Source: an uncultured Candidatus Saccharibacteria bacterium (lineage in GTDB: Bacteria > Patescibacteriota > Andersenbacteria > UBA10190). From it: a stretch of 64,000 nt of DNA. The translations under genes and the position numbers were made by a program. Under the pieces are notes generated by a model. The model worked only from the letters and a program-made list of their open reading frames with translations, was not told the origin of the DNA and did not search any database. The DNA is taken from the NCBI GenBank assembly GCA_964359735.1, contig CAYHTZ010000003.1:21993-85992 (forward strand), written 5' to 3'. Position 1 is the first letter of the stretch; every line of letters starts with the position of its first letter. Shown piece after piece: positions 3,719 through 37,341 of the stretch.

Positions 3719-3731
3719 TAATATCTATGTA

Positions 3732-3759
3732 CCTCTCCATAGATCGATCTATGGAGAGG
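3732..3759. promoter_or_regulatory. 28-bp perfect palindrome CCTCTCCATAGATCGATCTATGGAGAGG (copy 1 of 3), candidate operator
   Basis: Read directly: perfect reverse-complement symmetry. Lies in the 61-nt gap between murC stop (3718) and the PEP-utilising domain gene (start 3780/3804). The same core recurs at 28416-28441 and 28890-28909 flanking a TrpR/YerC-like regulator gene. Confidence 0.5.
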
Positions 3760-3779
3760 TTGCCCGAAGAGGGCTTTCG

Positions 3780-4835
3780 TTGCATAGTCAGCTAGAGCTC
3801 GTAATGATCAAACTTTCGAAAGTATTCACACGTGAACGCTCACTGTTTTACATGCGCATGTGGAATGACAGCGATCGCATGGGCTTTTCCCGCTGGTTGA
3901 GTACTGATGTTCAGAACAATATGTTTTGGCGAGAGGGGAACATTAACAAGATTTCAGTTTGGTATGACCGAGAGGAATACGACCGGCTAGGAGAGCTAAC
4001 GGCCGAAAAACTCCACGTTGATTCAAAGTTATTTGAAAAAATGGTTCGTGTTTTTCACGATCTCTGGCGCCCGATAGCCCCATATGTGCAAAACGGTAAG
4101 CTCATAACATCTGCCGACGAGCTGGAAAAGTTCTACCAAGATGTGGTTGCGTGGTGGTCGGTGATGGCATTGATGTTTCTTATCCCTAATGTGCCAAGAA
4201 TCCCGAGGAAGCAACGTGAGGCGGCGCTGGCACTGCGCGAGAAGGTAGAACTTTTTTCAGATGCAATGGATCACCTCATGGTGCGCTATGTGGTAGAAGA
4301 ACTACCTCAATATAAAGAATTGGCGTGGGTTATGATGCCAGAAGAAGCTATCAAACTTGGTCGCGATGAGCTCTCTCAGTATGAGCTGGATAAGATCCGT
4401 GGGCGACTCCATGGATTCGCTCTCTTAAATGAAAAGATTTGCAGCAGGCAGGAATTGCCAGGCGCTTTAGCGAAGCAGGGAATACAGTTGGAGCAAGAAC
4501 ATACCACGGCGGGGCTGCATGAAATCAGTGGGACGCCGGCCAGCGCAGGAATCGCGCGAGGCAGGGTGCGCCAAATTTTGCTCAAGGAACAGATACACGA
4601 GCTCCAGAAGGGGGAGATCCTGGTGACAGAAATGACTAATCCTAATTACGTACCAGCCATGAAGAAGGCGTCGGCAATTGTCACTGATGAGGGAGGTATC
4701 ACCTGCCATGCGGCTATTGTCAGCCGGGAGCTGGGCAAGCCGTGCGTCATTGGCACTAAAATTGCAACGCGTGTCCTAAAAAACGGCGATGAAGTTGAGG
4801 TAGATGCAGACAAGGGAACAGTGAAGCTGCTTTGA
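3780..4835 (+). CDS. PEP-utilising enzyme mobile (His-swivel) domain protein, no PEP/pyruvate-binding barrel; N-terminal domain of unclear function
   Basis: C-terminus '[50 protein letters not shown]' is the phosphohistidine swivel domain of PEP synthase/PPDK/rifampin phosphotransferase-type enzymes. Start ambiguous: TTG 3780 or ATG 3804. Paralogue at 21879-23297. Confidence 0.7.
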
Positions 4836-4955: not shown

Positions 4956-5972
4956 ATGGAGCACAGTGTAAATATCAACGACCTCACGGAGAAGCTGTTA
5001 AACAGCCTGGATGCCCGTTCCCGGGACATCGTTATTCGTAGATTTGGGCTTAAATCAGGCCAAGCGGAGACCCTGGAAAGCATCGGTAAGGAGTATGGAA
5101 TTACCCGTGAGAGGGTGCGCCAGATTGAGTCTTACACCAAAAAGACCCTGGCAACTTTACGGGAGCAAATAACCCCTCTGGTAGACTTGCTGGAAAAGAC
5201 CTTTGCGGAACACGGGGGGGTTATGGCCGAACCGCATGTCGTAGAGGTGATAGGCGCCGAACCCCAGGTTGTCCGTTTTTACCTGAATGTCTTGCCGGAA
5301 TACATATATGTCACTCACAAAGAGCTTTTCCACCCGCATTGGCGGCATGAACGGCGAGCAGGAGATGACGCCGATAAAATTGTGGAATGCGCTTGCGAAA
5401 TACTCGTTAAGAAGCAGCTGCCCCTTGAGGAGAGCGAGCTGATTGAAAGCGTAAAGGTACGGCTCGCAGGAGAGGGTGGCGCCTTACCTTCGCCTCACAT
5501 TATTGCGGCTTTTGTCGCCAGCAAACCGTTGGAGCGAACTGTGTTTCAGCAGTGGGGGCTAGCCGAGTGGCCGGAGGTGTCCCCCCGCGGAGTAGGTGAT
5601 AAGGCATACGCGGTGCTGCGTCGGCATGGGAAGCCCGCCCACTTCCGTGAAATCGCGAGCATGATTTCCGAGGCTAAATTTGATACGAAGGCAGCTAACC
5701 CCCAAACCGTGCACAATGAGTTGATTAAAGACGACCGCTTTGTACTGGTGGGGCGGGGGCTCTACGGGTTGAAAGAATGGGGATATGTGCCGGGCACCGT
5801 GGCGGATGTTTTAGAGGCAATCCTGCGCCGTGCCAAGGTTCCCATGACGCGCGAGGAGCTCACCGCCGAAGTGTTGAAACAAAGGATTGTTAAAAAGAAT
5901 ACCATTTTACTCGGCCTTCAGAACCACAAGCGGTTCGTGAGAACAGCTGATCAGCGGTACACATTGCGATGA
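4956..5972 (+). CDS. Sigma-70 region-4-like HTH + C-terminal HARE-HTH domain DNA-binding protein
   Basis: N-terminus 'ETLESIGKEYGITRERVRQIESYTKKTL' matches the sigma-70 region 4.2 signature (xTLEEVGxxFGVTRERIRQIEAKAL). C-terminal 'FVLVGRGLYGLKEWGY' matches the HARE-HTH signature seen in RpoE-delta N-terminal domains. Combination called from motifs only. Confidence 0.65.
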   Translation: MEHSVNINDLTEKLLNSLDARSRDIVIRRFGLKSGQAETLESIGKEYGITRERVRQIESYTKKTLATLREQITPLVDLLEKTFAEHGGVMAEPHVVEVIGAEPQVVRFYLNVLPEYIYVTHKELFHPHWRHERRAGDDADKIVECACEILVKKQLPLEESELIESVKVRLAGEGGALPSPHIIAAFVASKPLERTVFQQWGLAEWPEVSPRGVGDKAYAVLRRHGKPAHFREIASMISEAKFDTKAANPQTVHNELIKDDRFVLVGRGLYGLKEWGYVPGTVADVLEAILRRAKVPMTREELTAEVLKQRIVKKNTILLGLQNHKRFVRTADQRYTLR

Positions 5973-5988: not shown

Positions 5989-7332
5989 TTGTATACTGGA
6001 ATAATGCTTCTCGTCTCTCAAGGACTTAGCAGCAGCGCACCAAGTACGCTGCTCGTGCCGGAGTTCCTGGATATGGTGGTGACATTGGCGCCAGTGCTCT
6101 TAGGGTTGGCCTGGCTTCTGATAACATTTTTTGCCTTGTGGTTTGCGCGAGAACTGTATGGCTTTATCATTGCCGTGCCCATATATTTGGGGACGATAAA
6201 ATATACTATTCTGCAGGTAGTTTTGCCCGAGGATGCAGAGGAGACGCCGAAGTCGATGGAGGATGCGATCTCACACTGGGGCGGGATACACTACAATCCT
6301 GATGTGAAGGAGAGGTACTTTGATGGCTTTGTGGATTGGTGGTACAGCCTTGAGGTGCAATGCACTCCCGAGAAGGTGCGTTACTTTCTCTTTATCCCCA
6401 CTATATTCCGGCCTTTCTTTGAAGGCGTCATCTACGGCCAGTACCCCGAAGCAGAAATTCAAGAAGCCGAGGACTACACGCTGAACTATGATTACAGAAG
6501 AGTCCGGCAGGACTTCGAAGTGTACGGCACCGATATGATTTTGTCGCTGGACGATGTGTACCCGATTCGCTCGTATACTCAATACGGCGACCCCTTGTCT
6601 CCTACGGAAACATTCATTGATCCGCACCAATCCATGATTGAGGCTTACTCAAATGTTAACCCGGGCGAGGAATACTGGTTCCAAGTAATTGTTTGGCCGG
6701 CGAGTCCGGCTAAGAAAAAATCTTGGGTGGCGAAGGGGGAAAAAGAAATTGCTCAGATTACCGGGCGGGCAAAGGAGGCCGGCCCCGGCTTCTTTAAACA
6801 ACTGAGAAAGTTTTTTACGCGCATCCCTCAGGAGGTTGTGAACGTGCTGCGCGGCCGGCACGCCTCCGCCGGGGAGGAAGGAGAAGAGCAACTCGATGTC
6901 CACTTCTTCGATCCCGTGGAAACCATAAAAATGGAATCGATTTTGCGGAAAATTTCTCGAGATGTGTACCGCTGCATGGTGCGCCTGATATACATTGCGC
7001 CCAAGGGGAAGCTGCATAAGCCTAACATCGGCCGCGCCATTGGCCCTTTCAAGCAGTTTTGGGGCGCGAACGCATTTAGGCCTGATCCAAAAACAAAGTC
7101 GAATGGGGTGGATTACATCATGAAGGAGCGGCGCCGGCTTTACCGTGAACGCACTATCTTGGCCGAGTACCAGTGGCGGGACCCTTTGGGCATGGGACGC
7201 GGACCATATATGCTGACGGCGGAGGAAGTAGCCACGGTGTACCATTTCCCCACCAAATGGATACAGGCGCCTGTTTTAGAGCGCGCGAAAGCGGGAACCT
7301 ACTCGGCACCGGAGGAGGTACCGTATGTCTGA
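5989..7332 (+). CDS. Membrane protein (2-3 N-terminal TM helices + large soluble domain), partner of the downstream T4CP-like ATPase
   Basis: Hydrophobic N-terminus 'VVTLAPVLLGLAWLLITFFALWFA...IIAVPIYLG', then 360-aa hydrophilic domain. Stop overlaps the start of the next gene (ATGTCTGA), indicating translational coupling. Confidence 0.55.
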   Translation: MYTGIMLLVSQGLSSSAPSTLLVPEFLDMVVTLAPVLLGLAWLLITFFALWFARELYGFIIAVPIYLGTIKYTILQVVLPEDAEETPKSMEDAISHWGGIHYNPDVKERYFDGFVDWWYSLEVQCTPEKVRYFLFIPTIFRPFFEGVIYGQYPEAEIQEAEDYTLNYDYRRVRQDFEVYGTDMILSLDDVYPIRSYTQYGDPLSPTETFIDPHQSMIEAYSNVNPGEEYWFQVIVWPASPAKKKSWVAKGEKEIAQITGRAKEAGPGFFKQLRKFFTRIPQEVVNVLRGRHASAGEEGEEQLDVHFFDPVETIKMESILRKISRDVYRCMVRLIYIAPKGKLHKPNIGRAIGPFKQFWGANAFRPDPKTKSNGVDYIMKERRRLYRERTILAEYQWRDPLGMGRGPYMLTAEEVATVYHFPTKWIQAPVLERAKAGTYSAPEEVPYV

Positions 7333-9019
7333 AACACCTAAGATCCAAGAAATAACCGTGTTGGGGCAGACGAACTTCCGCGGGCAGGCGCGGGTGTTCG
7401 GCATCTACGAAGAAGACCGGCGGGGCCATGTCTATGTGTTGGGAAAGACAGGCATGGGAAAGACCACGCTGCTGCGGAATATGCTGGTGCAAGATATCCA
7501 AGGCGGCAAGGCGGTGGCACTCGTTGACCCGCATGGAGACCTAGCTAGTGAGCTGCTGGCTGCCGTGCCCTCGCGCCGATTGAACGATGTCATCTACTTC
7601 GACCCATCGGACGTGGCGTACCCCGTTGGCTTCAATGTGTTAGAAACTCCCAAGCCGGAGTATAAGTATCTCGTAGCCAGCGGCCTCATTGGCACGCTTA
7701 AGAAAATTTGGGCGGATTCGTGGGGGCCGCGGTTAGAATACATCTTGAGGAATACCATTTTAGCACTGCTTGATTACCCCGGCGCTACTATGCTCGGGAT
7801 ATCTCGTATGCTCACTGACAAAAAATACCGCGAACGGGTAGTGCGCAAAATTCAAGACCCGGTGGTGAGATCATTTTGGGTAAATGAGTTTGCTAACTAC
7901 AACGAGCGTTTTGCTAACGAAGCTATCTCTCCCATCCAGAACAAGGTAGGGCAATTTCTCTCCAGCGCCGTGATCCGCAATATTGTCTCGCAGCCGAAAA
8001 GTACCATTGACATCCATGACATTATGGACAACGGTAAGGTCTTGATTATGAATTTGTCGAAGGGGAAGATCGGGGAAGACAACTCGGCGCTCTTGGGAGC
8101 CATGATGATCACTCGCATCCAGCTGGCTGCCATGGACCGGGCGTATGTGCCGGAGAGCGAGCGGACAGATTTCTTTCTCTACGTGGATGAATTTCAAAAC
8201 TTCGCGACGGAATCGTTCGCCGGTATTCTTTCCGAGGCGCGCAAATACCGCCTGAATCTGGTGATTGCCCATCAATACATCACCCAGATGGAAGAACCTG
8301 TGCGCGATGCTGTCTTTGGAAACGTGGGCACCATCGTAGCCTATCGAGTGGGCGCCTTTGATGCCGAGTATTTGGAGAAGGAATTTGCACCATACTTTGT
8401 TCAATCGGACTTGGTAAACCTGGACCGATACTCAGCCTACATCCGCCTAATGATCCATGGCGTTACCAGCAAGCCATTCAGCATGAAGAACATTCCGCCG
8501 ACGCCGCAGTCGGAAGGAAATGCGGAGACGGTGCTCCGCGTCTCGCGCGAACGTTATGCCCGGCCGCGCGATATCGTGGAGGATAAAATCCTGCGGTGGA
8601 GCAGCAACACTGAGCCGAAACCGGTAAAGCGCACCCCCACGGCAGCCCCCCTTGCTCAAAAGCCCGTGCCGACGCAGCCCGCCCAGCCAGCCGCGCCGGC
8701 AAAACTTACTAAGGCTGTGCCGGCACCATTCCCGGCGATGTTCCAAACGCCGGTGGGAATGGCCGAGAGCGAGCCGCCAGAACCGGGGCCACTGATCACT
8801 GACCTCGCGAGCACACTCGCCGAAGAAGACCGCAAGCGCGGGCAGCAAAAAACTCAAGACCGAATTGGCAAGAAAATGTATGACACGTTGTGCGACCGCT
8901 GCGGGAAGGCGACGCAAGTACCTTTTCAGCCCACTCCGGGGAGGCCAGTGTATTGCCCAGAGTGCTTTGCGATTGTGAAAGCCGGGATTGAAGACCAGGA
9001 TTCGTCGATGCAGGGCTAA
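7325..9019 (+). CDS. VirD4/TraG/TraD-like (type IV coupling protein-like) P-loop ATPase with C-terminal zinc ribbon
   Basis: Walker A 'VLGKTGMGKTTLL'. Walker B-like 'LYVDEFQNFA' followed by 'LNLVIAHQYITQM' (the T4CP/FtsK-HerA clade pattern LDEF...Q...Q). P/A/Q-rich linker. C-terminal 'CDRCGK...YCPEC' CxxC-x17-CxxC. Confidence 0.65.
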   Translation: MSETPKIQEITVLGQTNFRGQARVFGIYEEDRRGHVYVLGKTGMGKTTLLRNMLVQDIQGGKAVALVDPHGDLASELLAAVPSRRLNDVIYFDPSDVAYPVGFNVLETPKPEYKYLVASGLIGTLKKIWADSWGPRLEYILRNTILALLDYPGATMLGISRMLTDKKYRERVVRKIQDPVVRSFWVNEFANYNERFANEAISPIQNKVGQFLSSAVIRNIVSQPKSTIDIHDIMDNGKVLIMNLSKGKIGEDNSALLGAMMITRIQLAAMDRAYVPESERTDFFLYVDEFQNFATESFAGILSEARKYRLNLVIAHQYITQMEEPVRDAVFGNVGTIVAYRVGAFDAEYLEKEFAPYFVQSDLVNLDRYSAYIRLMIHGVTSKPFSMKNIPPTPQSEGNAETVLRVSRERYARPRDIVEDKILRWSSNTEPKPVKRTPTAAPLAQKPVPTQPAQPAAPAKLTKAVPAPFPAMFQTPVGMAESEPPEPGPLITDLASTLAEEDRKRGQQKTQDRIGKKMYDTLCDRCGKATQVPFQPTPGRPVYCPECFAIVKAGIEDQDSSMQG

Positions 9020-9038
9020 ATGTGGTATAGTCAAGAGG

Positions 9039-9728
9039 ATGCGCGACATGGCGAGGGAAACAGAGAAAGTACCCATCGACCGACCATTTAATTTTAAAGA
9101 GGATGCCAACTGGCGGATTTTTCGCATTATGGCGGAGTTCGTCGAAGGCTTCGAGTTTTTAGCAGATCTGCGCAAAGAGGTGACGTTTTTTGGATCAGCA
9201 CGTTTCTCTGAGGAGTCCCGCTGGTACAAAGAGGCGCTGAAATTAGGGCGCCTGCTGGCCAAAGCTGGATTCACGGTGATCACGGGCGGGGGTCCGGGCA
9301 TTATGGAGGCCGGCAATCGAGGCGCCTATGAAGGCGGGGGGGAGTCGGTCGGTCTCGACATCGAATTACCAGCTGAACAGCGGCGCAACGCGTACGTGAA
9401 ACGCGGGATTGGATTCCACTACTTTTTCACACGCAAAGTTATGCTGAGAGCTTCTGCTCAAGCATATATCTTCTTCCCCGGAGGCTTTGGAACCGTGGAC
9501 GAATTTAGTGAGACAATTACGCTTATGCAGACTCAGAAAATGGAGCGCGTACCTGTTATCTGCATGGGCCGCGAGTTCTGGGAACCATTCCATGAGTGGG
9601 CGCGAACAATCATGCTCAGTAAGTTTGAAACCATCTCGCCTGAAGATCTTGACCTCTATACTATTGTGGATTCGGCAGAAGAAGTATTCGAGCTTATCAA
9701 GGATTCGCCAGAAAGAAAGTACTTTTGA
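9039..9728 (+). CDS. LOG family protein (TIGR00730; cytokinin riboside 5'-monophosphate phosphoribohydrolase-like Rossmann protein)
   Basis: 'VTFFGSARFSEES...VITGGGPGIMEAGNRGAYEGGGESVGL...FFPGGFGTVDEFSE' is the LOG/YvdD signature. Start set at ATG 9039 (AAGAGG just upstream); ATG 9048 is an alternative. The ORF-track start 8988 would overlap the previous gene. Confidence 0.85.
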   Translation: MRDMARETEKVPIDRPFNFKEDANWRIFRIMAEFVEGFEFLADLRKEVTFFGSARFSEESRWYKEALKLGRLLAKAGFTVITGGGPGIMEAGNRGAYEGGGESVGLDIELPAEQRRNAYVKRGIGFHYFFTRKVMLRASAQAYIFFPGGFGTVDEFSETITLMQTQKMERVPVICMGREFWEPFHEWARTIMLSKFETISPEDLDLYTIVDSAEEVFELIKDSPERKYF

Positions 9729-9773
9729 TCCACCAGTTTGAATCCAGTCAAGGGTCAGTGCTAGGCTTCTTGC

Positions 9774-11651
9774 ATGCGAAACATTAGTACAAATGAGCTG
9801 CGGGAACTCTACCAGCAATTCTTTGAGGGCAAAGGCCATACGCGGATTCCCAGCGCTCCGCTGGTGCCGGAGAACGACCCGACCACCCTTTTTACAGGAT
9901 CGGGAATGCAACCGCTCGTTCCGTACCTTTTAGGAGAGCCACACCCGCAAGGGAAGCGTCTCGTGAATTCGCAGAAATCATTTCGAGCCGAAGATATCGA
10001 GGAAATTGGTGACAACCGCCACACGACGTTTTTTGAAATGTTGGGCAACTGGTCACTCGGCGACTACTTCAAAGAAGAGCAGCTGTCGTGGATATTTGAG
10101 TTTTTGACTGAGGTGGTGGAGTTGGATCCCAGAAATTTATACGTAACTGTTTTTGCTGGCGATAAGAAAGCAAACATTCCCCGAGATACGGAATCCGTGG
10201 AAATTTGGAAGCGCTTGTTTCAAGAGAAGGGAATAGAAGCTCGTGACAGTGAGCTTCTCACTCCCCAGCAAGGAGGGCGGGAAGGCATGCAAGGAGGAAG
10301 AATTTTTTATTTCGGCGCTAGCAAAAATTGGTGGAGCAGAGCCGGACTCCCAGAGAACATGCCTCCCGGCGAGCCGGGCGGACCTGACTCCGAAATTTTC
10401 TATGATTTTGGAGCAGAGCATAATAGCGCTTTTGGCGAGCATTGCCATCCCAACTGCGATTGTGGCCGATTTATGGAAATTGGGAACTCTGTTTTCATGG
10501 AGTTTGTGAAACAGGCGGATGGCAGTTTTGTCTCTCTTCCTCAGAAAAACGTTGACTTCGGCGGCGGACTGGAGCGTATGGTGGCGGCGGCCCAACACAC
10601 TCCAGATATTTTTTCCGCGGTTGATCCATTGCGAGCGATCATTGAGCACATTGAGAACACGACTCACACCACCTATCAGAGCTCCGCGAACAAGGCTTCC
10701 TACCGGATCATGGCGGACCATATGCGTGCGGTGACGCTCCTTATCGGTGATGGCGTAGCTCCCTCGAACACGGATCGAGGATACGTGGTGCGTCGGTTGA
10801 TTCGACGCGCCGCGTACCACGCCCAGAAGCTAGCGGCTGAGGATGCTATCATCCAGCGGCTGGCCAACGTGGTCGCCGACCAATATGCCTCTGCCTACCC
10901 AGATGTAAAAAAACAATCGCGTCAGGTGGGGCACGCTATTCGGGAGGAAGTGCAAAAGTTTGGCGTGAGCTTGCGGCGGGCGCTAGTCAAGCTGGAGACC
11001 ATCTTAAACAAAGAATCGGGAATTTCTGGAGCAGAGATCTTCGAACTCAACACTGCCCATGGACTGCCACTCGATGCGATTTGGGATCGTCTCAAAGAGA
11101 GGAATATTCCCATCGGCTCAGGTGTTCAGGAGGACGTTCGGCGTAGGATTGCCGACCACCGGGAGAAATCCCGCACAGCGGGGACAGGGAAGTTTAAAGG
11201 AGGACTGGCTGACCACTCGGAAAAATCTGTCCACTACCACACGGCCACGCATTTGCTGCACCAGGCGCTGCGGGACGTGCTGGGAGAACATGTCTTTCAA
11301 AAGGGTAGCAATATTACGCCCGAGAGGCTCCGATTCGACTTTTCGCACACGGACAAAATGACACCCGACCAAATTCAGAAAATAGAAAACCTGGTGAACC
11401 AGAAAATCCAGGAGGATTTGCTCGTCCTCCGCGAGGAGACGACAGTCGCGGAAGCGAAGCAGAAGGGGGCGCTGGGCTTATTTGAAGAAAAGTATGCCGA
11501 CCGTGTGAGTGTATACTCTATGGGGAATTACTCCTGCGAAATTTGCGGGGGTCCGCATGTGGCACACACGGGGGAGTTGGGTCATTTCAAGATTACGAAG
11601 GAAGAGTCTGCCGGGGCTGGTGTACGCCGGATAAAAGCCGTATTAGAGTAG
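9774..11651 (+). CDS. alaS: Alanine--tRNA ligase (short form, 625 aa; catalytic + editing domains, C-terminal C-Ala domain apparently absent)
   Basis: N-terminal 'FFEGKGHTRIPSAPLVPENDPTTLFTGSGMQP...FEMLGNWSLGDYFKEE'. Editing-domain 'HTATHLLHQALRDVLG...GGPHVAHTGELG'. Confidence 0.9.
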   Translation: MRNISTNELRELYQQFFEGKGHTRIPSAPLVPENDPTTLFTGSGMQPLVPYLLGEPHPQGKRLVNSQKSFRAEDIEEIGDNRHTTFFEMLGNWSLGDYFKEEQLSWIFEFLTEVVELDPRNLYVTVFAGDKKANIPRDTESVEIWKRLFQEKGIEARDSELLTPQQGGREGMQGGRIFYFGASKNWWSRAGLPENMPPGEPGGPDSEIFYDFGAEHNSAFGEHCHPNCDCGRFMEIGNSVFMEFVKQADGSFVSLPQKNVDFGGGLERMVAAAQHTPDIFSAVDPLRAIIEHIENTTHTTYQSSANKASYRIMADHMRAVTLLIGDGVAPSNTDRGYVVRRLIRRAAYHAQKLAAEDAIIQRLANVVADQYASAYPDVKKQSRQVGHAIREEVQKFGVSLRRALVKLETILNKESGISGAEIFELNTAHGLPLDAIWDRLKERNIPIGSGVQEDVRRRIADHREKSRTAGTGKFKGGLADHSEKSVHYHTATHLLHQALRDVLGEHVFQKGSNITPERLRFDFSHTDKMTPDQIQKIENLVNQKIQEDLLVLREETTVAEAKQKGALGLFEEKYADRVSVYSMGNYSCEICGGPHVAHTGELGHFKITKEESAGAGVRRIKAVLE

Positions 11652-11655
11652 ATAT

Positions 11656-13020
11656 ATGCGGGATATTCGACCGGTACCTAAAAAACCTCCACTCGGAGGC
11701 ATGCCGCTGCCCAGCGAAGATGAGCTCTATGAAGTATCGCAATCGGCGAAGCAGCGGGGAAGCGAGCGAGCTTCAGTGCCAAGTAAAGCGCTGCGCGGGT
11801 CGCAAGTGCCGGTAACGAATGTGCACGTACCCGCTGAACCATCCCGGCCCCTGTTTGCGAAGGCACCACTCAGGGAGAAGAAACCTAAAACTCGCATCCG
11901 GCTGGGGAGCAAGGAGCGAGCGGCGGTATTAGTCCTCCTTTTAATTGTCGTGGTGGTGGTTTTGCTCAGTGCGGCTATTTTTTTGCCGCGAGCAGACGTT
12001 AAATTGATTTTACGAACGGCACCTCTTTTAGTGGATGAAGACCTGATTGTCCGCGCGGCGGCGGACGGCCCGAATGTTATTCCCGGAGCAACTTTTTTCC
12101 GACAGGTGTCAGTAGAAGGAACTGTCCCGGTCGAAAGTACCGAAATCGTGGGTACGAAGGCGACGGGCACGGTGCAGATTGTAAATCGCACTACTCAAGA
12201 GCAAAAAATCCGCGACAGAAGCCGGCTCATGACGAAAGAAGGGGTACTTTTTTACATGACACGGCATGTCATAGTTGCGCCGGACTCAAGAGCCAGCGTG
12301 GAAGTGGAGGCGGCCGAGGCGGGAGAAGTGGGGAATATTGCGCCGCAGCGGCTTAACTTTGCCGCACTCGACGCCTCGGCTCAGTCGGTAGTGTATGCCG
12401 AAGCAACCGCGGCCATCTCCGGCGGCAAGGGCGAGGAAGTGCGTGTGGTGCGTGAAGAAGATATTGAACGAGCCAGGATAGCCGCCAAAGAAGCCGCCCG
12501 CGCCAAGGTCCAAGAAGAAATTCAAAAAGAACTGCCCAGCGGCTGGGTGCTCCTGGAAGAGAGTTGGACAGCTGATTACGACTCTTTCAAGACAGACGGT
12601 GAGGTAGGCAGCCGGCAACCACAAATTGCTTACTCAGGCAATGCCACGGTACGCGTCTTAGGCTATGAATCAGCCAGGTTAGAAGAGCGTCTCCGCGCTG
12701 CGTTGGAAGAGAGGATCGACCAGGATTACGCGCTCTTCCCGGGGCCAATTTCCTACTCGAAAACAGTGAAAAGCGTGGATTGGGAGAAGGGAGAAGGGGT
12801 AATCGCGACCCGCGTCACCCACACTACGATTCCTGATTTTTCTTTAGAAACTCTCAAGGGGAAAATTGCGCGGCGTGGCGCAGATGAGGCGAAAACGTAC
12901 CTCGAAGGGCTTCCCGGGGTGCAGCGGGTAGAGCTGGCTTTTTCACCCTTCTGGGTGCGTTCGATCCCACGGATTGAAAAGCGAATTAACCTGGAAGTGA
13001 TCCCGGAGCGCCAGCCCTAA
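11656..13020 (+). CDS. Hypothetical membrane-anchored protein (basic cytoplasmic N-tail, single TM, large extracytoplasmic domain)
   Basis: ORF of 454 aa with TM 'AAVLVLLLIVVVVVLLSAAIFL'. No recognised domain. Confidence 0.5.
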   Translation: MRDIRPVPKKPPLGGMPLPSEDELYEVSQSAKQRGSERASVPSKALRGSQVPVTNVHVPAEPSRPLFAKAPLREKKPKTRIRLGSKERAAVLVLLLIVVVVVLLSAAIFLPRADVKLILRTAPLLVDEDLIVRAAADGPNVIPGATFFRQVSVEGTVPVESTEIVGTKATGTVQIVNRTTQEQKIRDRSRLMTKEGVLFYMTRHVIVAPDSRASVEVEAAEAGEVGNIAPQRLNFAALDASAQSVVYAEATAAISGGKGEEVRVVREEDIERARIAAKEAARAKVQEEIQKELPSGWVLLEESWTADYDSFKTDGEVGSRQPQIAYSGNATVRVLGYESARLEERLRAALEERIDQDYALFPGPISYSKTVKSVDWEKGEGVIATRVTHTTIPDFSLETLKGKIARRGADEAKTYLEGLPGVQRVELAFSPFWVRSIPRIEKRINLEVIPERQP

Positions 13021-19536: not shown

Positions 19537-19610
19537 ACCGCAGATGGTAGCACAAACTTTTTGGAATATTTTTCTTGATTTGACAAGCTCTCGGAGGTAT
19601 GATGAGGTTC

Positions 19611-20870
19611 ATGTCGAAATTTGTGATTCAGGGTGGCAAGCCGCTTGCCGGAGAGGTAGAAGTGTATGGGTCAAAGAATGCCGTCCTGCCACTGATTGCA
19701 GCGAGCCTTCTGACCACGGAGCCCTTCACTATTTCTAATGTGCCGGATATTTCCGATGTCAGCACAATGCTCGCCATACTTTCTGGCTGGGGCGCCAAGG
19801 TGAAAAGAGAAGATGGCCAGAGGGGAACGCTGGTAATTGAAACTCAATCTGTTAAAACTGACGGCGCCCAGGACGAGGCGGTCGGGAAGCTTAGGGGTTC
19901 GATCCTTTTCTTAGGGGCCCTCTTGGGAAGAGAGCGTAACGTCAGCCTGCCGCGGCCAGGAGGAGATGTGATAGGCGCCCGGCCGATTGATGTGCATTTG
20001 GATGGCTTCCGGCAGCTGGGTGCTGAAATCAACGAGGAAGGGGATCAGGTGCTAATTTCCGGCCAGGCAATGCAGGCGGGAGAGGTGACGCTCTCAGAAT
20101 TTTCGGTGACGGCCACCGAGAATATGTTGCTGGTCGCCGCGACCCTGCCGGGGAAAACTACCATATACACTGCCGCGGCTGAGCCGCACGTAGTGGCACT
20201 GGCCGGGGCCCTCACCCGCATGGGAGCGAGTATCACGGGGGCAGGTACGCATACTCTGGTGGTAGAAGGCAGTACCAAGCTGGCCGGGGCTACGGTTGAA
20301 AATATTTCGGATATGCTTGAGGCCGGATTTTTTATTCTACTCGCGGCGGCAACAAAATCAGATATGAATATCCGCCAGGTGCCTACGCAGGATTTGCGCC
20401 TCTTTTTTAAGAAGCTCACTCAGATCGGGGTCGCGTACTCAGTTGACCACGACACAGTTACCGTCCGCCCAGCTCCGCTACGCGCTTTTCGCTTGCAAGT
20501 CCTGCCGCACCCTGGCATCGCCACCGACTTGCAGGCGCCGTTTGCTGTGCTGGCTACTCAGACGCAGGGAAGTTCATTGATTCATGACCCGCTCTACGAA
20601 AGCCGTTTCAAGCACATAGATGAGCTCGCAAAAATGGGAGCAGACGCGGTGGTTTGCGATCCTCATCGCGTGATCATTAATGGCCCCACACCTCTCGCGG
20701 GCCGCGAGATCCCGAGCCTCGACATACGCAGTGGGGCTACTCTCGTTATGGCTGGGCTTACCGCCCGCGGGCAAACTACGATTCGGGAAGCAGAAATAGT
20801 GGACCGGGGATATGCACGGCTGACAGAGCGGCTCCAGGCTCTGGGGGCTGATATTCAACGAATCGAATGA
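19611..20870 (+). CDS. murA: UDP-N-acetylglucosamine 1-carboxyvinyltransferase MurA
   Basis: 'MSKFVIQGGKPLAGEVEVYGSKNAVLPLIAASLL' is the MurA N-terminus. ATG 19611 preferred (GGAGG 13 nt upstream) over the ORF-track ATG 19599. Confidence 0.9.
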   Translation: MSKFVIQGGKPLAGEVEVYGSKNAVLPLIAASLLTTEPFTISNVPDISDVSTMLAILSGWGAKVKREDGQRGTLVIETQSVKTDGAQDEAVGKLRGSILFLGALLGRERNVSLPRPGGDVIGARPIDVHLDGFRQLGAEINEEGDQVLISGQAMQAGEVTLSEFSVTATENMLLVAATLPGKTTIYTAAAEPHVVALAGALTRMGASITGAGTHTLVVEGSTKLAGATVENISDMLEAGFFILLAAATKSDMNIRQVPTQDLRLFFKKLTQIGVAYSVDHDTVTVRPAPLRAFRLQVLPHPGIATDLQAPFAVLATQTQGSSLIHDPLYESRFKHIDELAKMGADAVVCDPHRVIINGPTPLAGREIPSLDIRSGATLVMAGLTARGQTTIREAEIVDRGYARLTERLQALGADIQRIE

Positions 20871-21877
20871 ATATTACCCGCCAAATTGCCATCGATCTCG
20901 GGACTACCAGTACGTTGATGTACGTGCCTAAGAAGGGAATTGTGCTCAATGAGCCATCGGTGGTGGCGGTATCGCTGGATGAGAATGCGGTACTGGCCAT
21001 CGGCAATGACGCGAAAGAAATGATTGGCCGCACTCCCGAAACAATTGTGGCCCATCGGCCGCTGAAAGACGGGGTGATTGCGGACTACCGCGTCACGGAA
21101 GCAATGCTCCGCTACCTACTGCAAAAGGCAGGCGCATCCACGCGGTTCCTGCGTCCCGAGGTTCTCGTGAGCGTACCGGCCGGGATCACCAGCACCGAAC
21201 GCCGAGCGGTGGTAGATGCGGCGCTCTCCGCGGGAGCCCGCGCTGCCTTCCTGATAAAAGAACCGGTAGCCGCCGCGATTGGGGCAGGCATTCCGATCGG
21301 GGAAAGCTCTGGGCATATGATCGTAGATATTGGGGGAGGAACTACTGAAGCCGCTGTCATTTCCCTCGGAGGTATTGTGGTAGCCCATTCAGCCCGGGTA
21401 GCTGGCAATCGCTTTGACGAGGCGATTGCCGACCACGTGCGTAAGCGCTATGGCGTTGTGATCGGAGAACAAACGGCTGAGGTGATTAAAAAAACGATTG
21501 GATCAGCCGTCATTGAAGAGACGCCGCGCGAGATGGCGATCCGCGGGCGCGACCTGGCTTCGGGGCTGCCTCGCGAGACCACAATTTCTTCCCACGAAAT
21601 CGCCGAGGCACTGCGCCATCCCTTGGAAGAGGTGTTGCAAGCCATTAAATATGTTTTGCAAGATACGCCACCAGAGCTCGCAGCCGACGTTATCGATAAA
21701 GGCATTGTGCTTTCCGGCGGCGGAGCGTTACTCAAAAATATTGACCAACTTATCTCCCGTACGATTACGGTGCCGGTGTACGTGGCAGACGACCCACTCG
21801 TGTGTGTGGTAAAAGGGGCGGGAGCAGCGCTCGAGAACATCAACGCCTACAAGCGCAGTGTCTTGCTGACGAGGTAA
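20867..21877 (+). CDS. mreB: Rod-shape-determining actin homologue MreB (paralogue 1)
   Basis: 'IAIDLGTTSTLMYVPKKGIVLNEPSVVAV', 'DIGGGTTEAAVISLGGIV'. ATGA overlap with murA. Confidence 0.9.
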   Translation: MNITRQIAIDLGTTSTLMYVPKKGIVLNEPSVVAVSLDENAVLAIGNDAKEMIGRTPETIVAHRPLKDGVIADYRVTEAMLRYLLQKAGASTRFLRPEVLVSVPAGITSTERRAVVDAALSAGARAAFLIKEPVAAAIGAGIPIGESSGHMIVDIGGGTTEAAVISLGGIVVAHSARVAGNRFDEAIADHVRKRYGVVIGEQTAEVIKKTIGSAVIEETPREMAIRGRDLASGLPRETTISSHEIAEALRHPLEEVLQAIKYVLQDTPPELAADVIDKGIVLSGGGALLKNIDQLISRTITVPVYVADDPLVCVVKGAGAALENINAYKRSVLLTR

Positions 21878-21878
21878 T

Positions 21879-23297
21879 GTGAGCGAAGATTGGGTAAAAG
21901 TCGTGGAAAGGCGTGGTCAAAGTGTCCTTATAAGTTCCTATTTCTATAATGGCGTTCGAACTAAGTACTTTCGTAAAACACTGGGAGTTGAGCACGGAAT
22001 TGATCACTACTTGATTGTAGATTTTTTTAACTATTACCTGGAATCTGAAGTGCTCAGATTCCAGGAGGCGATCAAGAGCGAAATTGAAAGCAACGACGCC
22101 AAATTCATTTCTCAGGCTCTTGAACAGCTCACGCGCAAGGGAGAGGAGTTAACTCATCTCGCCACAACTATTTCCAGAACAAAGAATCTGACTGCGCATC
22201 CAGCTTCGTTACTTCAAGAGTTTTCGGAGTTGTGTCTTGAATTTGGCCCTGCTATGTATTTCCCCATTCTCATCGAGCCGATAGTAGAGGCAAGGGCTCT
22301 AAACATTATTCAGCGGAGAATCCCCAAAGAAACCGAAAAATACTTTGCTCTCCTGACTGCTTCTCATCAGCCCACTGATGGAACAAAGGAACTGGTAAGC
22401 TTCTACAGACTTGCCGAGATGTATCACAAGAATCATCGGAAAATCACACTTCCAATTAAGCAAGCAGTTGATAAACACTTGCGGCAATTTGGTTGGCTAG
22501 CATTTACCAAATTCGTTGGCCGCCCATGGACTCAGCGAAGCATCATGGCACGCCTTGAGAAAATACCCAATCCCGGGGAAAGGTTACGTGAGCTCGAGAG
22601 ACAATACAAGCAAGAAAAAATTCAGGTTGAGAAGATCTTTAAGGAATATCAATTTACTAAAGCTGAGCGCGAATTTCTTCGGGAAGTCCAGCATCTGGCT
22701 TACTTTCGAACCTATCGGGTTGATGTGTACTCGAAAGCTGGTTATTTAATTAAGGATTTGCTCAGAATCATTTCCCGCAGACTCGATTTAACGGTTGCGG
22801 AGACAGTCTGGCTCACGTATGAAGAGATTCTTTCTCACCTTAGACGAGGGAAAAAATTCCCTAGGAAGATTGCCCGAAAACGTCAATACGGGACTTGGCA
22901 GCTGCTTTTTGAAAAAGGAAAAATGACGTTTCAGTACGAACCGCCATTCTTGGTGAAGGAACAAAAGCTCGATATTAACATTGTCAAAGGAACTCCCGCC
23001 TGTAGTGGGAAAGCCGAAGGACCCGTTGCGATAATCCGCGGAGTCAAGGAATTCGATAAAATGACTGATAAGGCCATTCTTGTCACCTCTATGACCACAC
23101 CAGACTTTGTGCCCCTAATGCAGCAAGCCGCTGCCATTATAACTGACGAGGGCGGCATAACGTGTCACGCAGCTATCGTTTCGCGAGAGCTCGGCGTGCC
23201 ATGTGTCATTGGCACTAAAATTGCGACCAAGGCTCTCAAAGACGGCGATGTCGTAGAAGTGGACGCAGATAAGGGACTAGTGCGAAAGCTGGCCTAG
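21879..23297 (+). CDS. PEP-utilising enzyme mobile (His-swivel) domain protein, long paralogue of 3780-4835
   Basis: C-terminus '[51 protein letters not shown]' nearly identical to the 3780 gene. The upstream 370 aa align with the 3780 protein over its length plus an extra N-terminal region. Confidence 0.7.
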   Translation: MSEDWVKVVERRGQSVLISSYFYNGVRTKYFRKTLGVEHGIDHYLIVDFFNYYLESEVLRFQEAIKSEIESNDAKFISQALEQLTRKGEELTHLATTISRTKNLTAHPASLLQEFSELCLEFGPAMYFPILIEPIVEARALNIIQRRIPKETEKYFALLTASHQPTDGTKELVSFYRLAEMYHKNHRKITLPIKQAVDKHLRQFGWLAFTKFVGRPWTQRSIMARLEKIPNPGERLRELERQYKQEKIQVEKIFKEYQFTKAEREFLREVQHLAYFRTYRVDVYSKAGYLIKDLLRIISRRLDLTVAETVWLTYEEILSHLRRGKKFPRKIARKRQYGTWQLLFEKGKMTFQYEPPFLVKEQKLDINIVKGTPACSGKAEGPVAIIRGVKEFDKMTDKAILVTSMTTPDFVPLMQQAAAIITDEGGITCHAAIVSRELGVPCVIGTKIATKALKDGDVVEVDADKGLVRKLA

Positions 23298-23527
23298 GAA
23301 ACCTTAGCGGAGTCCAACTTTCCAGTATCCCGGCGCATGCGATCGCGTTTTTCGAGCATACGAACTTCATATTCGAGTCGCGCAACTGCTTGGGGTATCC
23401 AAGCCATTTTCTCTACGTGTCTTTTGATGCGCTCGAGATACATGATCAGCACTTGACCAAGCTCTTCTGCCGTGCGCTCAGGCGCGTTTATCCACTCCTC
23501 GCCGTATTTCTTAGGACGGCACGACAT
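23294..23527 (-). CDS. Hypothetical small protein (77 aa)
   Basis: Charged, helical-looking minus-strand ORF directly downstream of the 23534-23806 ORF. The competing + strand ORF 23390-23773 is F/L-rich low-complexity. Confidence 0.35.
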   Translation of the reverse strand: MSCRPKKYGEEWINAPERTAEELGQVLIMYLERIKRHVEKMAWIPQAVARLEYEVRMLEKRDRMRRDTGKLDSAKVS

Positions 23528-23533
23528 GCGCGA

Positions 23534-23806
23534 TTAGAAAAAGCCGAGATGGCGCTGAATGGCCCGAATTTTATCTTTGATCCAAGAAATTTCGTCCTTG
23601 TTGGCCGAGGATACATCCTTGTGAATATTTTCAGTGATAGCTTTGAACTCATAAAGAATTTTCTCAGTTTGTTCCTCCATTTTCGACGAAAGGCGTGTTT
23701 CCAACTGATTCAAGTCAAGGTGAATATCTTCCTGCAACTCAGCGAGATGGTCCAACGCTGCAGGTTCTTTTGACTTAATCCAGGCCTTCCGGACTTTCAT
23801 GATCAT
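23534..23806 (-). CDS. Hypothetical small coiled-coil protein (90 aa)
   Basis: K/E-rich heptad-like sequence 'LAELQEDIHLDLNQLETRLSSKMEEQTEKILYEFKAITENIHK'. ATG at 23806 lies in the palindromic ATGATCAT. Confidence 0.4.
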   Translation of the reverse strand: MIMKVRKAWIKSKEPAALDHLAELQEDIHLDLNQLETRLSSKMEEQTEKILYEFKAITENIHKDVSSANKDEISWIKDKIRAIQRHLGFF

Positions 23807-23863
23807 TAGTGTATCAGATGGTTGCCCTTCGACAAGCTCAGGGTAAAACAGTAAACTGTTTTG

Positions 23864-28415: not shown

Positions 28416-28441
28416 CTCTCCATAGATCGATCTATGGAGAG
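28416..28441. promoter_or_regulatory. 26-bp perfect palindrome CTCTCCATAGATCGATCTATGGAGAG (copy 2 of 3)
   Basis: Read directly. Lies between convergent stops of the PNPOx-like gene (28404) and the TrpR/YerC-like gene (28432-28434, overlapping). Could act as a bidirectional hairpin or second operator. Confidence 0.45.
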
Positions 28442-28884
28442 GCTCTGCGAGAGCCGACCACAGATTCGGAAATGCCGCGAGTGATGAGATCAATAATCAG
28501 CCAGCGTGGATCGCGATGTCGGAGACGGGGAATGAGGTTACGCCTGTGCTGCTCACGCCACTTCTCATCACGCCGTTGCCTAGCACGGATTTCGTGATAG
28601 TCGCGTACAACATGCTTAAGCCAGCCATCAACTGATTGAATAGTCGAAAAACCAATGCCAGTTTCTTCACGGACAGTATAGTACGACTTCCCCTGCAATA
28701 AGCCCTCAGCAGCCTGCAAACGGCGGCCAATCATGATGAGCTCGCTTGCTGTAAGCAGTCTCGACAAGAATTCGTATAACTCTTTTTTCGTCTTCAAGCC
28801 GTGGAGCGCTTCCACGAGAGGGTCAATAATCGCCTTCCGTTCTTTCATGCTCAGGGCGGCGTAATCAAACCGGGGCATACTCAT
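28432..28884 (-). CDS. TrpR/YerC/YecD-family DNA-binding protein (Trp-repressor-like HTH)
   Basis: 'LLTASELIMIGRRLQAAEGLLQGKSYYTVREETGIGFSTIQSV' matches the YerC/YecD TrpR-like HTH (LLTPxExxMxxxRLQxAxxLLxGxSYREIxxxTGxSxATISR). ATG 5 nt from the 28890-28909 palindrome. Confidence 0.75.
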   Translation of the reverse strand: MSMPRFDYAALSMKERKAIIDPLVEALHGLKTKKELYEFLSRLLTASELIMIGRRLQAAEGLLQGKSYYTVREETGIGFSTIQSVDGWLKHVVRDYHEIRARQRRDEKWREQHRRNLIPRLRHRDPRWLIIDLITRGISESVVGSRRASP

Positions 28885-28889
28885 ACCTT

Positions 28890-28909
28890 ACCATAGATCG
28901 ATCTATGGT
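28890..28909. promoter_or_regulatory. 20-bp perfect palindrome ACCATAGATCGATCTATGGT (copy 3 of 3) in the divergent promoter region
   Basis: Read directly. Sits between the divergent starts of the TrpR/YerC-like gene (28884, -) and the TIM-barrel gene (28951, +). Confidence 0.5.
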
Positions 28910-28950
28910 GATATGGACGAAGAGTCTGACATATCGTAGGTTAGATCTTT

Positions 28951-36324: not shown

Positions 36325-37341
36325 ATCGGGATTGATTTAGGCACTGCCAATACGCTCGTGTACGTGCGAGGCAAAGGCATTGTGATCAACGAGCCGTCAG
36401 TAGTGGCGCTTAACAAGAAAACGAATGAAGTGCTAGCCATTGGAAAGGAAGCCCAACGTATGGTGGGCAAAACGCCGGCTCACATCGTCGCCGTCCGCCC
36501 TTTGAAAGATGGCGTTATTTCCGACTTTGAAGTGACCGAACAAATGCTGCGTTACTTTATTCAGAAAGTTCATGAAGAGGCCTTCGCACTCTTGGCGCGG
36601 CCGCGGGTGGTAGTAGGGCTCCCTAGCTCGGTTACGGAGGTAGAACGAAGAGCAGTAGAAGAAGCGAGCCTCCGAGCCGGCGCCCGGGCGGTATTTTTGA
36701 TTGAAGAGGTTATGGCGGCGGCCATTGGCACGAGGCTGCCTGTCCATGAGGCCACTGGCAGCTTTATCGTCGACGTGGGTGGGGGAACAACAGATATCGC
36801 GGTCATATCGTTAGGCGGCATTGTGGTTAGTAAGACGCTGCGCGTGGCTGGAGACGAGATGAATGAAAGCATTGTCCAGTACGGACGTGATAATTTTAAT
36901 ATCTTAATCGGAGAAAGAACTGCCGAGGACCTGAAAATTCGTATCGGGGCAGCCACTGAGCTTCCTGAGATGTTAGAAGCCCCGCTGCGGGGCCGAGATC
37001 TGGTGACTGGGCTGCCTAAGGAGGTAGTGATTAATGCGATGCAAGTGCGAGAGGCGCTGTTGCGCCCTACCAGCGCGATTGTGGAGGCAGTGAAGGGAGT
37101 GGTAGAGGAAACTCCGCCTGAACTCATCGCTGACATTATTGACCAAGGTATCCACTTGGCGGGTGGCGGGTCGCTCTTGCGCGGCCTGGACCAGGTTATA
37201 TCGGCGGCAACCCAAATTCGAGCGCGCGTGGTAGATGACCCGCTGACGGCGGTGGTGCGCGGCACAGGCGTAGTTCTCGAAGACGTGGAAGCGCTCCACG
37301 AAGTGCTGCTCCCCAGCGTGCATGGCACACAGTTGAAATAG
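36325..37341 (+). CDS. mreB: Rod-shape-determining actin homologue MreB (paralogue 2); start codon non-canonical/uncertain
   Basis: '(FSQD)IGIDLGTANTLVYVRGKGIVINEPSVVAL...' The essential IDLGT phosphate-1 motif is encoded upstream of the first GTG (36358). Only ATC (36325) or ATT (36331) are available in frame after the proS TAG stop at 36292-36294. Followed by mreC-mreD-PBP2. Confidence 0.8.
   Translation: MGIDLGTANTLVYVRGKGIVINEPSVVALNKKTNEVLAIGKEAQRMVGKTPAHIVAVRPLKDGVISDFEVTEQMLRYFIQKVHEEAFALLARPRVVVGLPSSVTEVERRAVEEASLRAGARAVFLIEEVMAAAIGTRLPVHEATGSFIVDVGGGTTDIAVISLGGIVVSKTLRVAGDEMNESIVQYGRDNFNILIGERTAEDLKIRIGAATELPEMLEAPLRGRDLVTGLPKEVVINAMQVREALLRPTSAIVEAVKGVVEETPPELIADIIDQGIHLAGGGSLLRGLDQVISAATQIRARVVDDPLTAVVRGTGVVLEDVEALHEVLLPSVHGTQLK

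Follow-up and report, generated by a model that had tools for sequence, protein, structure and literature searches.

Two compact proteins of a Patescibacteriota contig are probable substrate-binding and phosphohistidine swivel subunits of RPH-superfamily dikinases

What is the function of a protein that ends in a phosphohistidine swivel domain and carries neither an ATP-grasp nucleotide-binding domain nor a phosphoenolpyruvate (PEP)/pyruvate-binding barrel? The question is raised by two open reading frames (ORFs), A and B, in a stretch of 64,000 nucleotides from an uncultured Candidatus Saccharibacteria bacterium (contig CAYHTZ010000003.1, positions 21,993 to 85,992), referred to here as the window. 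A previous reading of this DNA, made from the sequence only, described both as orphan swivel proteins of 472 and 351 amino acids and suggested a phosphotransfer enzyme whose substrate domain is missing or supplied in trans. The results presented below favour a different arrangement, in which A and B are probably stand-alone subunits, each with a substrate-binding domain and a phosphohistidine swivel, of dikinases that use ATP to phosphorylate small molecules and belong to the rifampin phosphotransferase (RPH) superfamily, whose Listeria member, RPH-Lm, served for comparison. The features on which this proposal is built are the following.

21879–23297, forward strand: ORF A, GTG start, 472 amino acids; predicted RPH-like helical substrate-binding domain followed by a C-terminal phosphohistidine swivel domain
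21879–22976, forward strand: N-domain of ORF A (residues 1–366), mostly helical with small β hairpins; predicted counterpart of the RPH rifampin-binding domain
22707–22709, forward strand: codon of Arg277 of ORF A, in the FRTYRxD motif, aligned to Arg666 of RPH-Lm
22983–23294, forward strand: swivel domain of ORF A (residues 369–472), PEP-synthase-like, with matches in Pfam, NCBIfam and PDB sequences
23166–23168, forward strand: codon of His430 of ORF A, in GGITCH, the predicted phospho-carrier and an invariant alignment column
3780–4835 (TTG start, 351 amino acids) or 3804–4835 (ATG start, 343 amino acids), forward strand: ORF B, short helical N-domain followed by a swivel domain
3804–4520, forward strand: N-domain of ORF B, about 239–240 amino acids, a putative shortened relative of the A-type domain
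within 3804–4520, forward strand: Arg-Glu pair R145-E146 of ORF B (numbering of the 343-residue form), in the place of the A-type FRTYR motif
4524–4832, forward strand: swivel domain of ORF B, with the His302 codon at 4707–4709

Public annotations of ORF B disagree on its start, which is placed at the ATG at 3804 in one of them (343 residues, P0012) and yields 351 residues in another (P0164). In a six-frame scan of the window the swivel motif occurs at two places only, 23151 in ORF A and 4692 in ORF B, and the Pfam search that the sequence-only reading had proposed found PF00391 as the sole domain of both proteins, at the C-terminus of each (A, residues 397–466, E = 5e-26, 90.5 bits; B, residues 276–346, E = 1.4e-27, 95.5 bits; gathering cut-off, 23.1 bits). 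Neither the ATP-grasp domain PPDK_N (PF01326, no match at E ≤ 1) nor PEP-utilizers_C (PF02896) was found by Pfam in A or B, in agreement with the reported lack of a PEP/pyruvate TIM barrel. Between them the swivels share 62% identity across 103 residues (BLASTP, E = 3e-39) and the phospho-carrier motif GGITCH is intact in both. The histidine is invariant across the A family alignment and, among about 163 relatives, 156 GGxT[SC]H motifs were counted, 134 of them ending in CH and 22 in SH.

The closest PDB sequence to the A swivel is that of a PEP synthase (8a8e, E = 5.7e-29), with a further resemblance to the C-terminal domain of pyruvate kinase (2e28, E = 4.8e-16), and its best NCBIfam match is PRK06464. 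The PEP synthase equivalog models score 126.7–138.1 bits with A and B, over the swivel only (about 105 residues), against cut-offs of 598 (PRK06464) and 739.75 (TIGR01418). The rifamycin phosphotransferase equivalogs also remain below their cut-offs (NF041857, 67.8–72.3 against 999 bits; NF000283, 44.6–54.6 against 1700 bits), and so do the PRK08296-type models (cut-offs of 578–730 bits; A 96.4, B 107.6, last ~105 residues only), which we take to represent the H/A subunit group of two-component dikinases (HpeH, CreH, PpsA). A and B are real, intact genes and not fragments of PEP synthase (PpsA) or PPDK, since the arrangement of N-domain plus swivel is conserved in 132 of the approximately 163 nearest relatives.

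The sequence-only reading could not assign the N-domains, and that of A, taken alone, has no match in Pfam, NCBIfam or PDB sequences (phmmer/hmmsearch). The structure prediction called for in that reading was run for A from an alignment of 11 sequences and gave a confident AlphaFold2 model (predicted local distance difference test, pLDDT, 89.7; predicted template modelling score, pTM, 0.86), with a chiefly helical domain of about 365 residues bearing small hairpins, followed by the swivel. All six structures of RPH-Lm (5fbt, 5fbu, 5fbs and 5hv1 among them) are the top Foldseek matches of this model in the PDB (E = 5.6e-16 to 1.1e-13), and the query-normalised template modelling (TM) score against the four wild-type entries is 0.58–0.64 (0.62–0.64 for 5fbt, 5fbu and 5hv1). 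The match spans both the rifampin-binding and the swivel domains, at a sequence identity of 15–16%, and the next Foldseek matches cover only the swivel (TM about 0.2). RPH-Lm (5FBT, 5FBS, 5FBU, 5HV1) is therefore the best structural match of A over its two domains and likewise ends in a swivel with the phospho-carrier histidine; in RPH-Lm an N-terminal ATP-grasp domain, which A and B do not possess, precedes them on the same chain.

The alignments agree with the fold. The full-length profile of the A family aligns to RPH-Lm from profile position 209 to its end, and a gap-free block of 103 columns around the FRTYR motif puts Arg277, in FRTYRxD, on residue 666 of RPH (hidden Markov model, HMM, alignment). 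Arg277 is invariant in the 11 aligned sequences, and the position of Glu667 is occupied by a threonine in A. In RPH, the phosphate in transfer is contacted by Arg666 and Glu667; replacement of these residues stops rifampin phosphorylation but does not abolish the ATP-side partial reaction, and the Arg666Ala variant has lost the second phosphotransfer (PMC4844700). As judged from the model, the N-domain of A corresponds to the second-substrate (rifampin-binding) domain of RPH, with the key arginine kept. Because the N-domain of A has this fold, the substrate domain would be present and the ATP-grasp nucleotide domain would be the missing part; some domain must come in trans, as had been suggested, but the predicted absentee is not the one that binds the substrate. 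The invariance of the second-site arginine of RPH in the A family likewise points to catalysis rather than regulation.

The absence of a PEP/pyruvate barrel is normal in the RPH superfamily (PMC4844700, PMC12167813), and its two-component dikinases were not set apart as a subfamily until 2025 (PMC12167813). In HpeHI of Rhodococcus rhodochrous, CreHI of Corynebacterium glutamicum and PpsAB of Thauera aromatica, the substrate domain and the histidine swivel lie on one chain and the ATP-grasp on another, with no TIM barrel, and A and B match the H/A subunit. Thus, HpeH comprises the rifampin-binding-like and swivel domains of RPH and HpeI the ATP-grasp, the conserved histidine being required, and HpeH alone moves phosphate from 4-phosphoacetophenone to acetovanillone (Dexter et al., PMC12167813). 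The swivel of A and B retains the PpsA-like GGxTCH motif, unlike these three systems, and no aromatic-catabolism genes lie near A or B, again unlike them. Nothing points to a rifamycin as the substrate of A or B, in contrast with RPH-Lm. Among the swivels of PpsA and PPDK, that of PpsA is the one closest in sequence to the swivel of A and B and has the same swivel motif, but in A and B this domain is C-terminal instead of central and is accompanied by neither PPDK_N nor the TIM barrel. A and B are thus compact versions of a known enzyme type that curation has not covered, and do not belong to the curated families.

By analogy with these enzymes, a separately encoded PPDK_N ATP-grasp protein, outside the window, would bind ATP and pass its β-phosphate to His430 in the swivel of A or His302 in that of B. 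The charged swivel would then turn back onto its own helical N-domain, where a conserved arginine, Arg277 of A and probably Arg145 of B, would hold the phosphate during its transfer to a hydroxyl of the bound small molecule, with AMP, inorganic phosphate and the phosphorylated compound as products.

Neither the length nor the build of A is peculiar to this contig. A word-indexed search with its N-domain (368 amino acids) retrieved full-length relatives of 456–495 residues with PF00391 as their only domain and 39–48% identity in the N-domain, together with a small number of short, incomplete ones. Run exhaustively with HMMER against 1.84 billion cluster representatives (50% identity level), the N-domain profile gave 2,737 matches at E ≤ 1e-3, 1,264 at E ≤ 1e-10 and 149 at E ≤ 1e-30, mostly proteins of 470–510 residues, so that A is no orphan. 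Motifs conserved in the N-domain are VVERRGQSVLISSYFYNG, LEFGPAMYFPILIE, FGWLSFTKFVG.PW, LAYFRTYRLDVYTKAG and FLTYEEI. The approximately 163 nearest relatives, analysed with our own profiles, comprise the 132 mentioned above, four of PPDK_N, N-domain and swivel and several multi-module chains, for instance one of 1,794 residues with a PPDK_N followed by three N-domain/swivel pairs. The alternative set out in the sequence-only reading, according to which the N-domains would be PPDK_N domains with orthologues bearing a PEP-binding domain, found no support, as the N-domains give no PPDK_N match. No Pfam or NCBIfam model exists for the A-type N-domain family, no description of it in the candidate phyla radiation (CPR) or in DPANN was found in the literature searched, and no defence family of PADLOC-DB matches A or B at E ≤ 0.01. 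Across relatives the swivels are 55–72% identical and the N-domains diverge down to 21–25%; the conservation of the swivel would fit a need to dock on a common ATP-grasp partner.

Such a partner is visible in part of the family. PPDK_N is fused ahead of an A-type N-domain in P0032, P0108, P0112, P0140 and P0039 (Pfam), and the gene of a two-domain relative (P0015, 478 amino acids, 31% identical to full-length A) is followed, with a 4-nt overlap, by a PPDK_N-only gene of 315 amino acids (L005), which is exactly the gene pair of a two-component dikinase in a distant relative of A. In a survey of gene neighbourhoods with our own profiles (27 loci), PPDK_N was adjacent or fused in six of the ten loci of distant relatives (L005, L017, L020, L023, L025 and L026). 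The ATP-grasp domains of the relatives, like the swivels of A and B, are most similar to those of true PEP synthase. The uncurated three-domain relatives (P0032, 838 amino acids) and polyproteins (P0021, P0042, L017, L023, L025) share with A the N-domain family (E = 1e-54 to 1e-32 against the A-family profile) and the swivel; their chains also include one ATP-grasp domain or two, sometimes with as many as four N-domain/swivel modules, and none of them reaches an NCBIfam cut-off.

Some of these relatives are of interest in themselves. Uninterrupted ORFs of 1,100–2,300 amino acids contain one or two PPDK_N domains and up to four N-domain/swivel modules, an organisation suggestive of a single ATP-grasp that serves more than one substrate module; in P0075 (1,500 amino acids) there are three modules and no ATP-grasp. 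Elsewhere, paralogues that all end in a swivel but differ greatly in their N-domains stand in arrays of four to six in a row, in which short (about 350 amino acids) and long (about 460–510 amino acids) forms are mixed, the array locus L003 being archaeal in appearance. In three unrelated loci (L001 11380–12015, L010 5392–5976 and L005 9381–9956) a HAD-family hydrolase gene stands directly beside a swivel-family gene, which could be a kinase/phosphatase pairing; this pairing is not present in the window.

Multi-module relatives: L017 5485–9888; L023 1861–6207; L025 8417–13531; L026 3164–6700; proteins P0021, P0022, P0042 and P0075
Paralogue arrays: L021 657–11348; L010 1289–11020; L003/L013 5946–11404; L027 111–7192

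The relationship of B to A is more distant than the sequence-only reading had supposed. Direct comparison does not bear out its statement that the two N-terminal parts can be aligned with each other, as nothing outside the swivel aligns by BLASTP or by hhalign of the A family against B alone. Only an alignment of eight short-form members brings residues 156–208 of B onto residues 291–343 of A by hhalign (about 53 residues, E = 2.2e-5, probability 76%). The word-indexed search with the B N-domain returned B itself and nothing else. The sole relative of this domain found beyond the source organism is P0045, whose residues 141–366 it matches (E = 4e-20), directly ahead of an A-type module. P0045 (856 amino acids) consists of a swivel end, a B-type N-domain and an A-type N-domain with its swivel, and is either a true fusion or the product of merged gene calls. 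A profile started from B reaches the short forms of about 350 residues encoded beside A-type genes in loci of archaea (L011, 1.7e-7; L003, 2e-4, E-values that refer to a small, all-homologous database of 228 sequences) and also, weakly, A-type proteins, in two collinear pieces that correspond to its first ~135 and last ~45 residues. In late iterations the A N-domain was matched twice by the B-derived profile, a signal of internal repetition that may come from profile drift. The segment ALALRE of B aligns weakly to YIRTAR of the A-type protein P0118 (HMM alignment), and B probably keeps the arginine (Arg145), followed by a glutamate as in RPH. From these matches, B would be a shortened version of the A-type domain that lacks its central 130–180 residues. 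With N-domains so different, A and B presumably have different substrates.

Several observations weigh against the assignment of A and B as dikinase subunits. No PPDK_N was detected in the 64-kb window by tblastn, by six-frame hmmsearch (--max) with our own profile or by Pfam on the larger ORFs, nor in about 9 kb of additional flank at both window ends taken from a sister assembly; this negative covers the window and that flank, a part of the genome. Unlike the HpeHI, CreHI and PpsAB pattern, no ATP-grasp gene lies beside A or B. The eight close A-clade loci (L001, L002, L003, L007, L009, L010, L011 and L012) likewise contain no PPDK_N within their available sequence, and for this clade the trans partner is assumed, not seen. 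With 472 and 343–351 residues (about 54 kDa for A), the proteins are much smaller than HpeH (71 kDa), and their N-domains (about 365 residues in A and 240 in B) are shorter than that of RPH (about 430). All the curated NCBIfam cut-offs lie far above their scores (96–108 against 578 bits for PRK08296, 68–72 against 999 for RPH). The single-sequence AlphaFold2 model of B reached a pLDDT of only 37.5, which leaves no usable structure of this protein. The dikinase reading as a whole draws on homology.

The surroundings of both genes bear on the remaining explanations, and their main features are listed here.

19599–20870, forward strand: murA
20867–21877, forward strand: mreB, in an apparent operon with murA (4-nt overlap) and ORF A (1-nt gap)
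23388–23404, forward strand: terminator-like hairpin with a T-run, 91 nt past the stop of ORF A; a consensus match of a kind whose site counts are not above those of shuffled sequences
3731–3760, no strand: perfect 30-bp palindrome ACCTCTCCATAGATC/GATCTATGGAGAGGT, 20–44 bp upstream of ORF B; probable operator
28432–28884, reverse strand: TrpR-family repressor gene (Pfam PF01371, E = 1.1e-11), with the same palindrome on both flanks

The gene content of the window is bacterial (FtsW, MurG, MurC, MurA, two MreB, MreC, PBP2, SecA, SecDF, RpoA and several tRNA synthetases) and its source is probably an ultra-small bacterium. Identical genes, including the same B protein, are found in an independent assembly from Hainich groundwater (ENA ERZ1292627, H51), apparently of the 0.1 µm filter fraction, as would suit a CPR bacterium. 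As had been noted, ORF A follows an mreB gene, whose stop lies 1 nt before its start; this mreB comes after murA, and the hairpin at 23388–23404 is a possible end of the murA-mreB-A transcript. ORF B stands at the end of the division and cell wall (dcw) cluster, after mraY-murD/murL-ftsW-murG-murC, and the palindromic operator ascribed to it was recovered, its role as an operator being probable. The 22-bp core of the palindrome recurs at 28418–28439 and 28889–28910 (0 expected by chance), with an exact copy at the 3' end of the TrpR-family gene and a copy with three mismatches just upstream of its start. The TrpR-family protein is accordingly placed as a candidate regulator of ORF B, a link drawn from the shared site, and the arrangement suggests a TrpR-type regulon in which the repressor controls its own gene as well as ORF B.

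In the relatives the genomic context is different: after glmS, among purine genes, in paralogue arrays or beside citrate-lyase-like genes. The A-clade loci share no neighbour except paralogous swivel genes and one syntenic locus pair. Because the gene context is not conserved in relatives, no cell-wall function is inferred for the A family, and a cell-wall-specific role at the family level was rejected. ORF A has the lowest GC content of 43 genes (45.6% against a mean of 53.8%, z = -3.1; z = -2.6 for the third codon position) and ORF B the fourth lowest. The only GTDB species representative with a close A relative is a Woesearchaeota archaeon (contig in L007), and other close A loci carry archaeal-type genes (a CCA enzyme in L003, a RadA-like gene in L001). 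The low GC, together with the DPANN archaeal affiliation of the closest relatives that can be placed, suggests that ORF A was likely acquired horizontally. It would probably have come from the DPANN/CPR gene pool and been inserted at the end of the murA-mreB operon. ORF B lies after murC, behind a palindromic operator common to the TrpR-family repressor gene.

Among the other explanations, the proteins could be phosphotransferases independent of any ATP-grasp, in which the swivel histidine shuttles phosphate between small molecules or is charged by another donor, for instance PEP via a PpsA-, PPDK- or EI-type domain in trans. The lack of PPDK_N in the window and in every close A-clade locus agrees with this, as do the phosphotransfer from 4-phosphoacetophenone to acetovanillone by HpeH alone (PMC12167813) and the similarity of the A swivel to true PEP synthase (8a8e, PRK06464), with a GGxTCH motif of PpsA type that contains the regulatory-site threonine. 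The missing PPDK_N is, however, judged from part of a genome, the ATP-grasp is repeatedly fused or adjacent in the wider family, and the partial reactions of HpeH and PpsA are side activities, not known physiological roles. A donor is not apparent in the window either: neither PEP-utilizers_C nor another donor domain was detected by Pfam in its larger ORFs, among which the separately encoded PEP-binding/TIM-barrel partner proposed by the sequence-only reading was sought with the same outcome. We regard this explanation as unlikely. The idea of fragments, that is, PEP synthase or PPDK genes truncated as pseudogenes or by mis-assembly, draws on the PEP synthases that head the NCBIfam and PDB sequence matches; these matches span only the ~105-residue swivel, at 126–138 bits against cut-offs of 598–740, the N-domains have no PPDK_N match, the swivel is C-terminal and not central, and the relatives show the same length and architecture. 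Domain content, scores below the cut-offs and the conserved length and build of the relatives refute it, and its probability is close to nil.

The location of both genes inside cell-wall or shape operons (murA-mreB-A and mraY-murD/L-ftsW-murG-murC-B), together with a relative that follows glmS, could instead indicate regulatory or sensor proteins, in which the swivel acts as a phosphorylatable signalling module and a ligand or partner bound by the helical N-domain ties the expression or activity of cell-wall genes to the metabolic state. A PEPut domain is present at the C-terminus of Bacillus and Geobacillus pyruvate kinase, where its role is regulatory, and the A swivel resembles this domain (2e28). 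This proposal is improbable in view of the varied context of the relatives (purine genes, paralogue arrays, citrate-lyase-like genes), of the many that belong to DPANN archaea, which have no peptidoglycan, and of the invariant second-site catalytic arginine of RPH. The base composition and the archaeal affinities of A (L007 from Woesearchaeota, L003 with its CCA enzyme, L001 with its RadA-like gene) are also what functionless passengers would show, namely decaying leftovers of a multi-gene dikinase array of archaea that were taken up horizontally and lost their ATP-grasp partner. The archaeal relatives do occur in arrays of short and long paralogues, and the two copies in the window lie 17 kb apart with no partner seen. 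Decay is nevertheless hard to reconcile with two full-length ORFs that have no frameshifts and keep the invariant residues (His430, Arg277 and GGITCH included), with the tight coupling of A to mreB (1-nt spacer), with the operator-like palindrome that B has of its own and with the presence of the same B protein in an independent assembly; we give such passengers a low probability. Stand-alone subunits of an RPH-type dikinase are thus the explanation that we retain as probable.

Known members of the RPH superfamily are an antibiotic-resistance enzyme, pigment ligases and a few aromatic-compound kinases, and the window shows compact versions (343–472 amino acids) of the substrate/phosphocarrier subunit. 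Should such modules receive their phosphate in trans from a common ATP-grasp, they would offer minimal genomes a cheap way to diversify kinase specificity. A far broader picture, which we put forward as speculation with little expectation that it holds in full, is that of a large unrecognised system among the ultra-small symbionts of DPANN and CPR in which one ATP-grasp charging module serves many interchangeable substrate-pocket and swivel modules (arrays of up to six, polyproteins of up to four modules and scattered orphans). It would allow a combinatorial phosphorylation of small molecules, for example to scavenge or neutralise metabolites of the host or environment, two of its modules having been captured here into cell-wall operons and a TrpR-type regulon. 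DPANN genomes without phenylphosphate carboxylase are reported to contain genes annotated as phenylphosphate synthase (PMC8091004). With correct annotation, metabolic reconstructions of CPR and DPANN organisms would no longer mistake genes of the present type for those of gluconeogenic PEP synthase or of phenol degradation.

Other features of the region were noted. The window contains two MreB paralogues, one in the murA-mreB-ORF A unit (20867–21877) and one in a canonical cluster of mreB, mreC, an ORF of 152 amino acids and PBP2 (36358–37341). Upstream of the window, in the sister assembly, the same dcw cluster encodes an 883-residue fusion of MurL (N-terminal and epimerase domains) with a Mur ligase (L030 2536–5187). 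The low-GC composition (44–47%) continues past ORF A from 23298 to 23860, a stretch that may belong to the same acquired segment and holds a reverse-strand ORF of 90 amino acids with no Pfam match (23534–23806). Downstream of ORF B, the gene at 4956–5972 unites a Sigma-70 region 4 with a HARE-HTH domain, an unusual pairing. It is followed by a block (5989–13020) with an ORF of 447 amino acids without a Pfam match, a TrwB/HerA-like ATPase that ends in a treble-clef zinc finger (7325–9019) and a Baseplate_J-like protein (11656–13020), possibly a group of secretion- or mobile-element-related genes.

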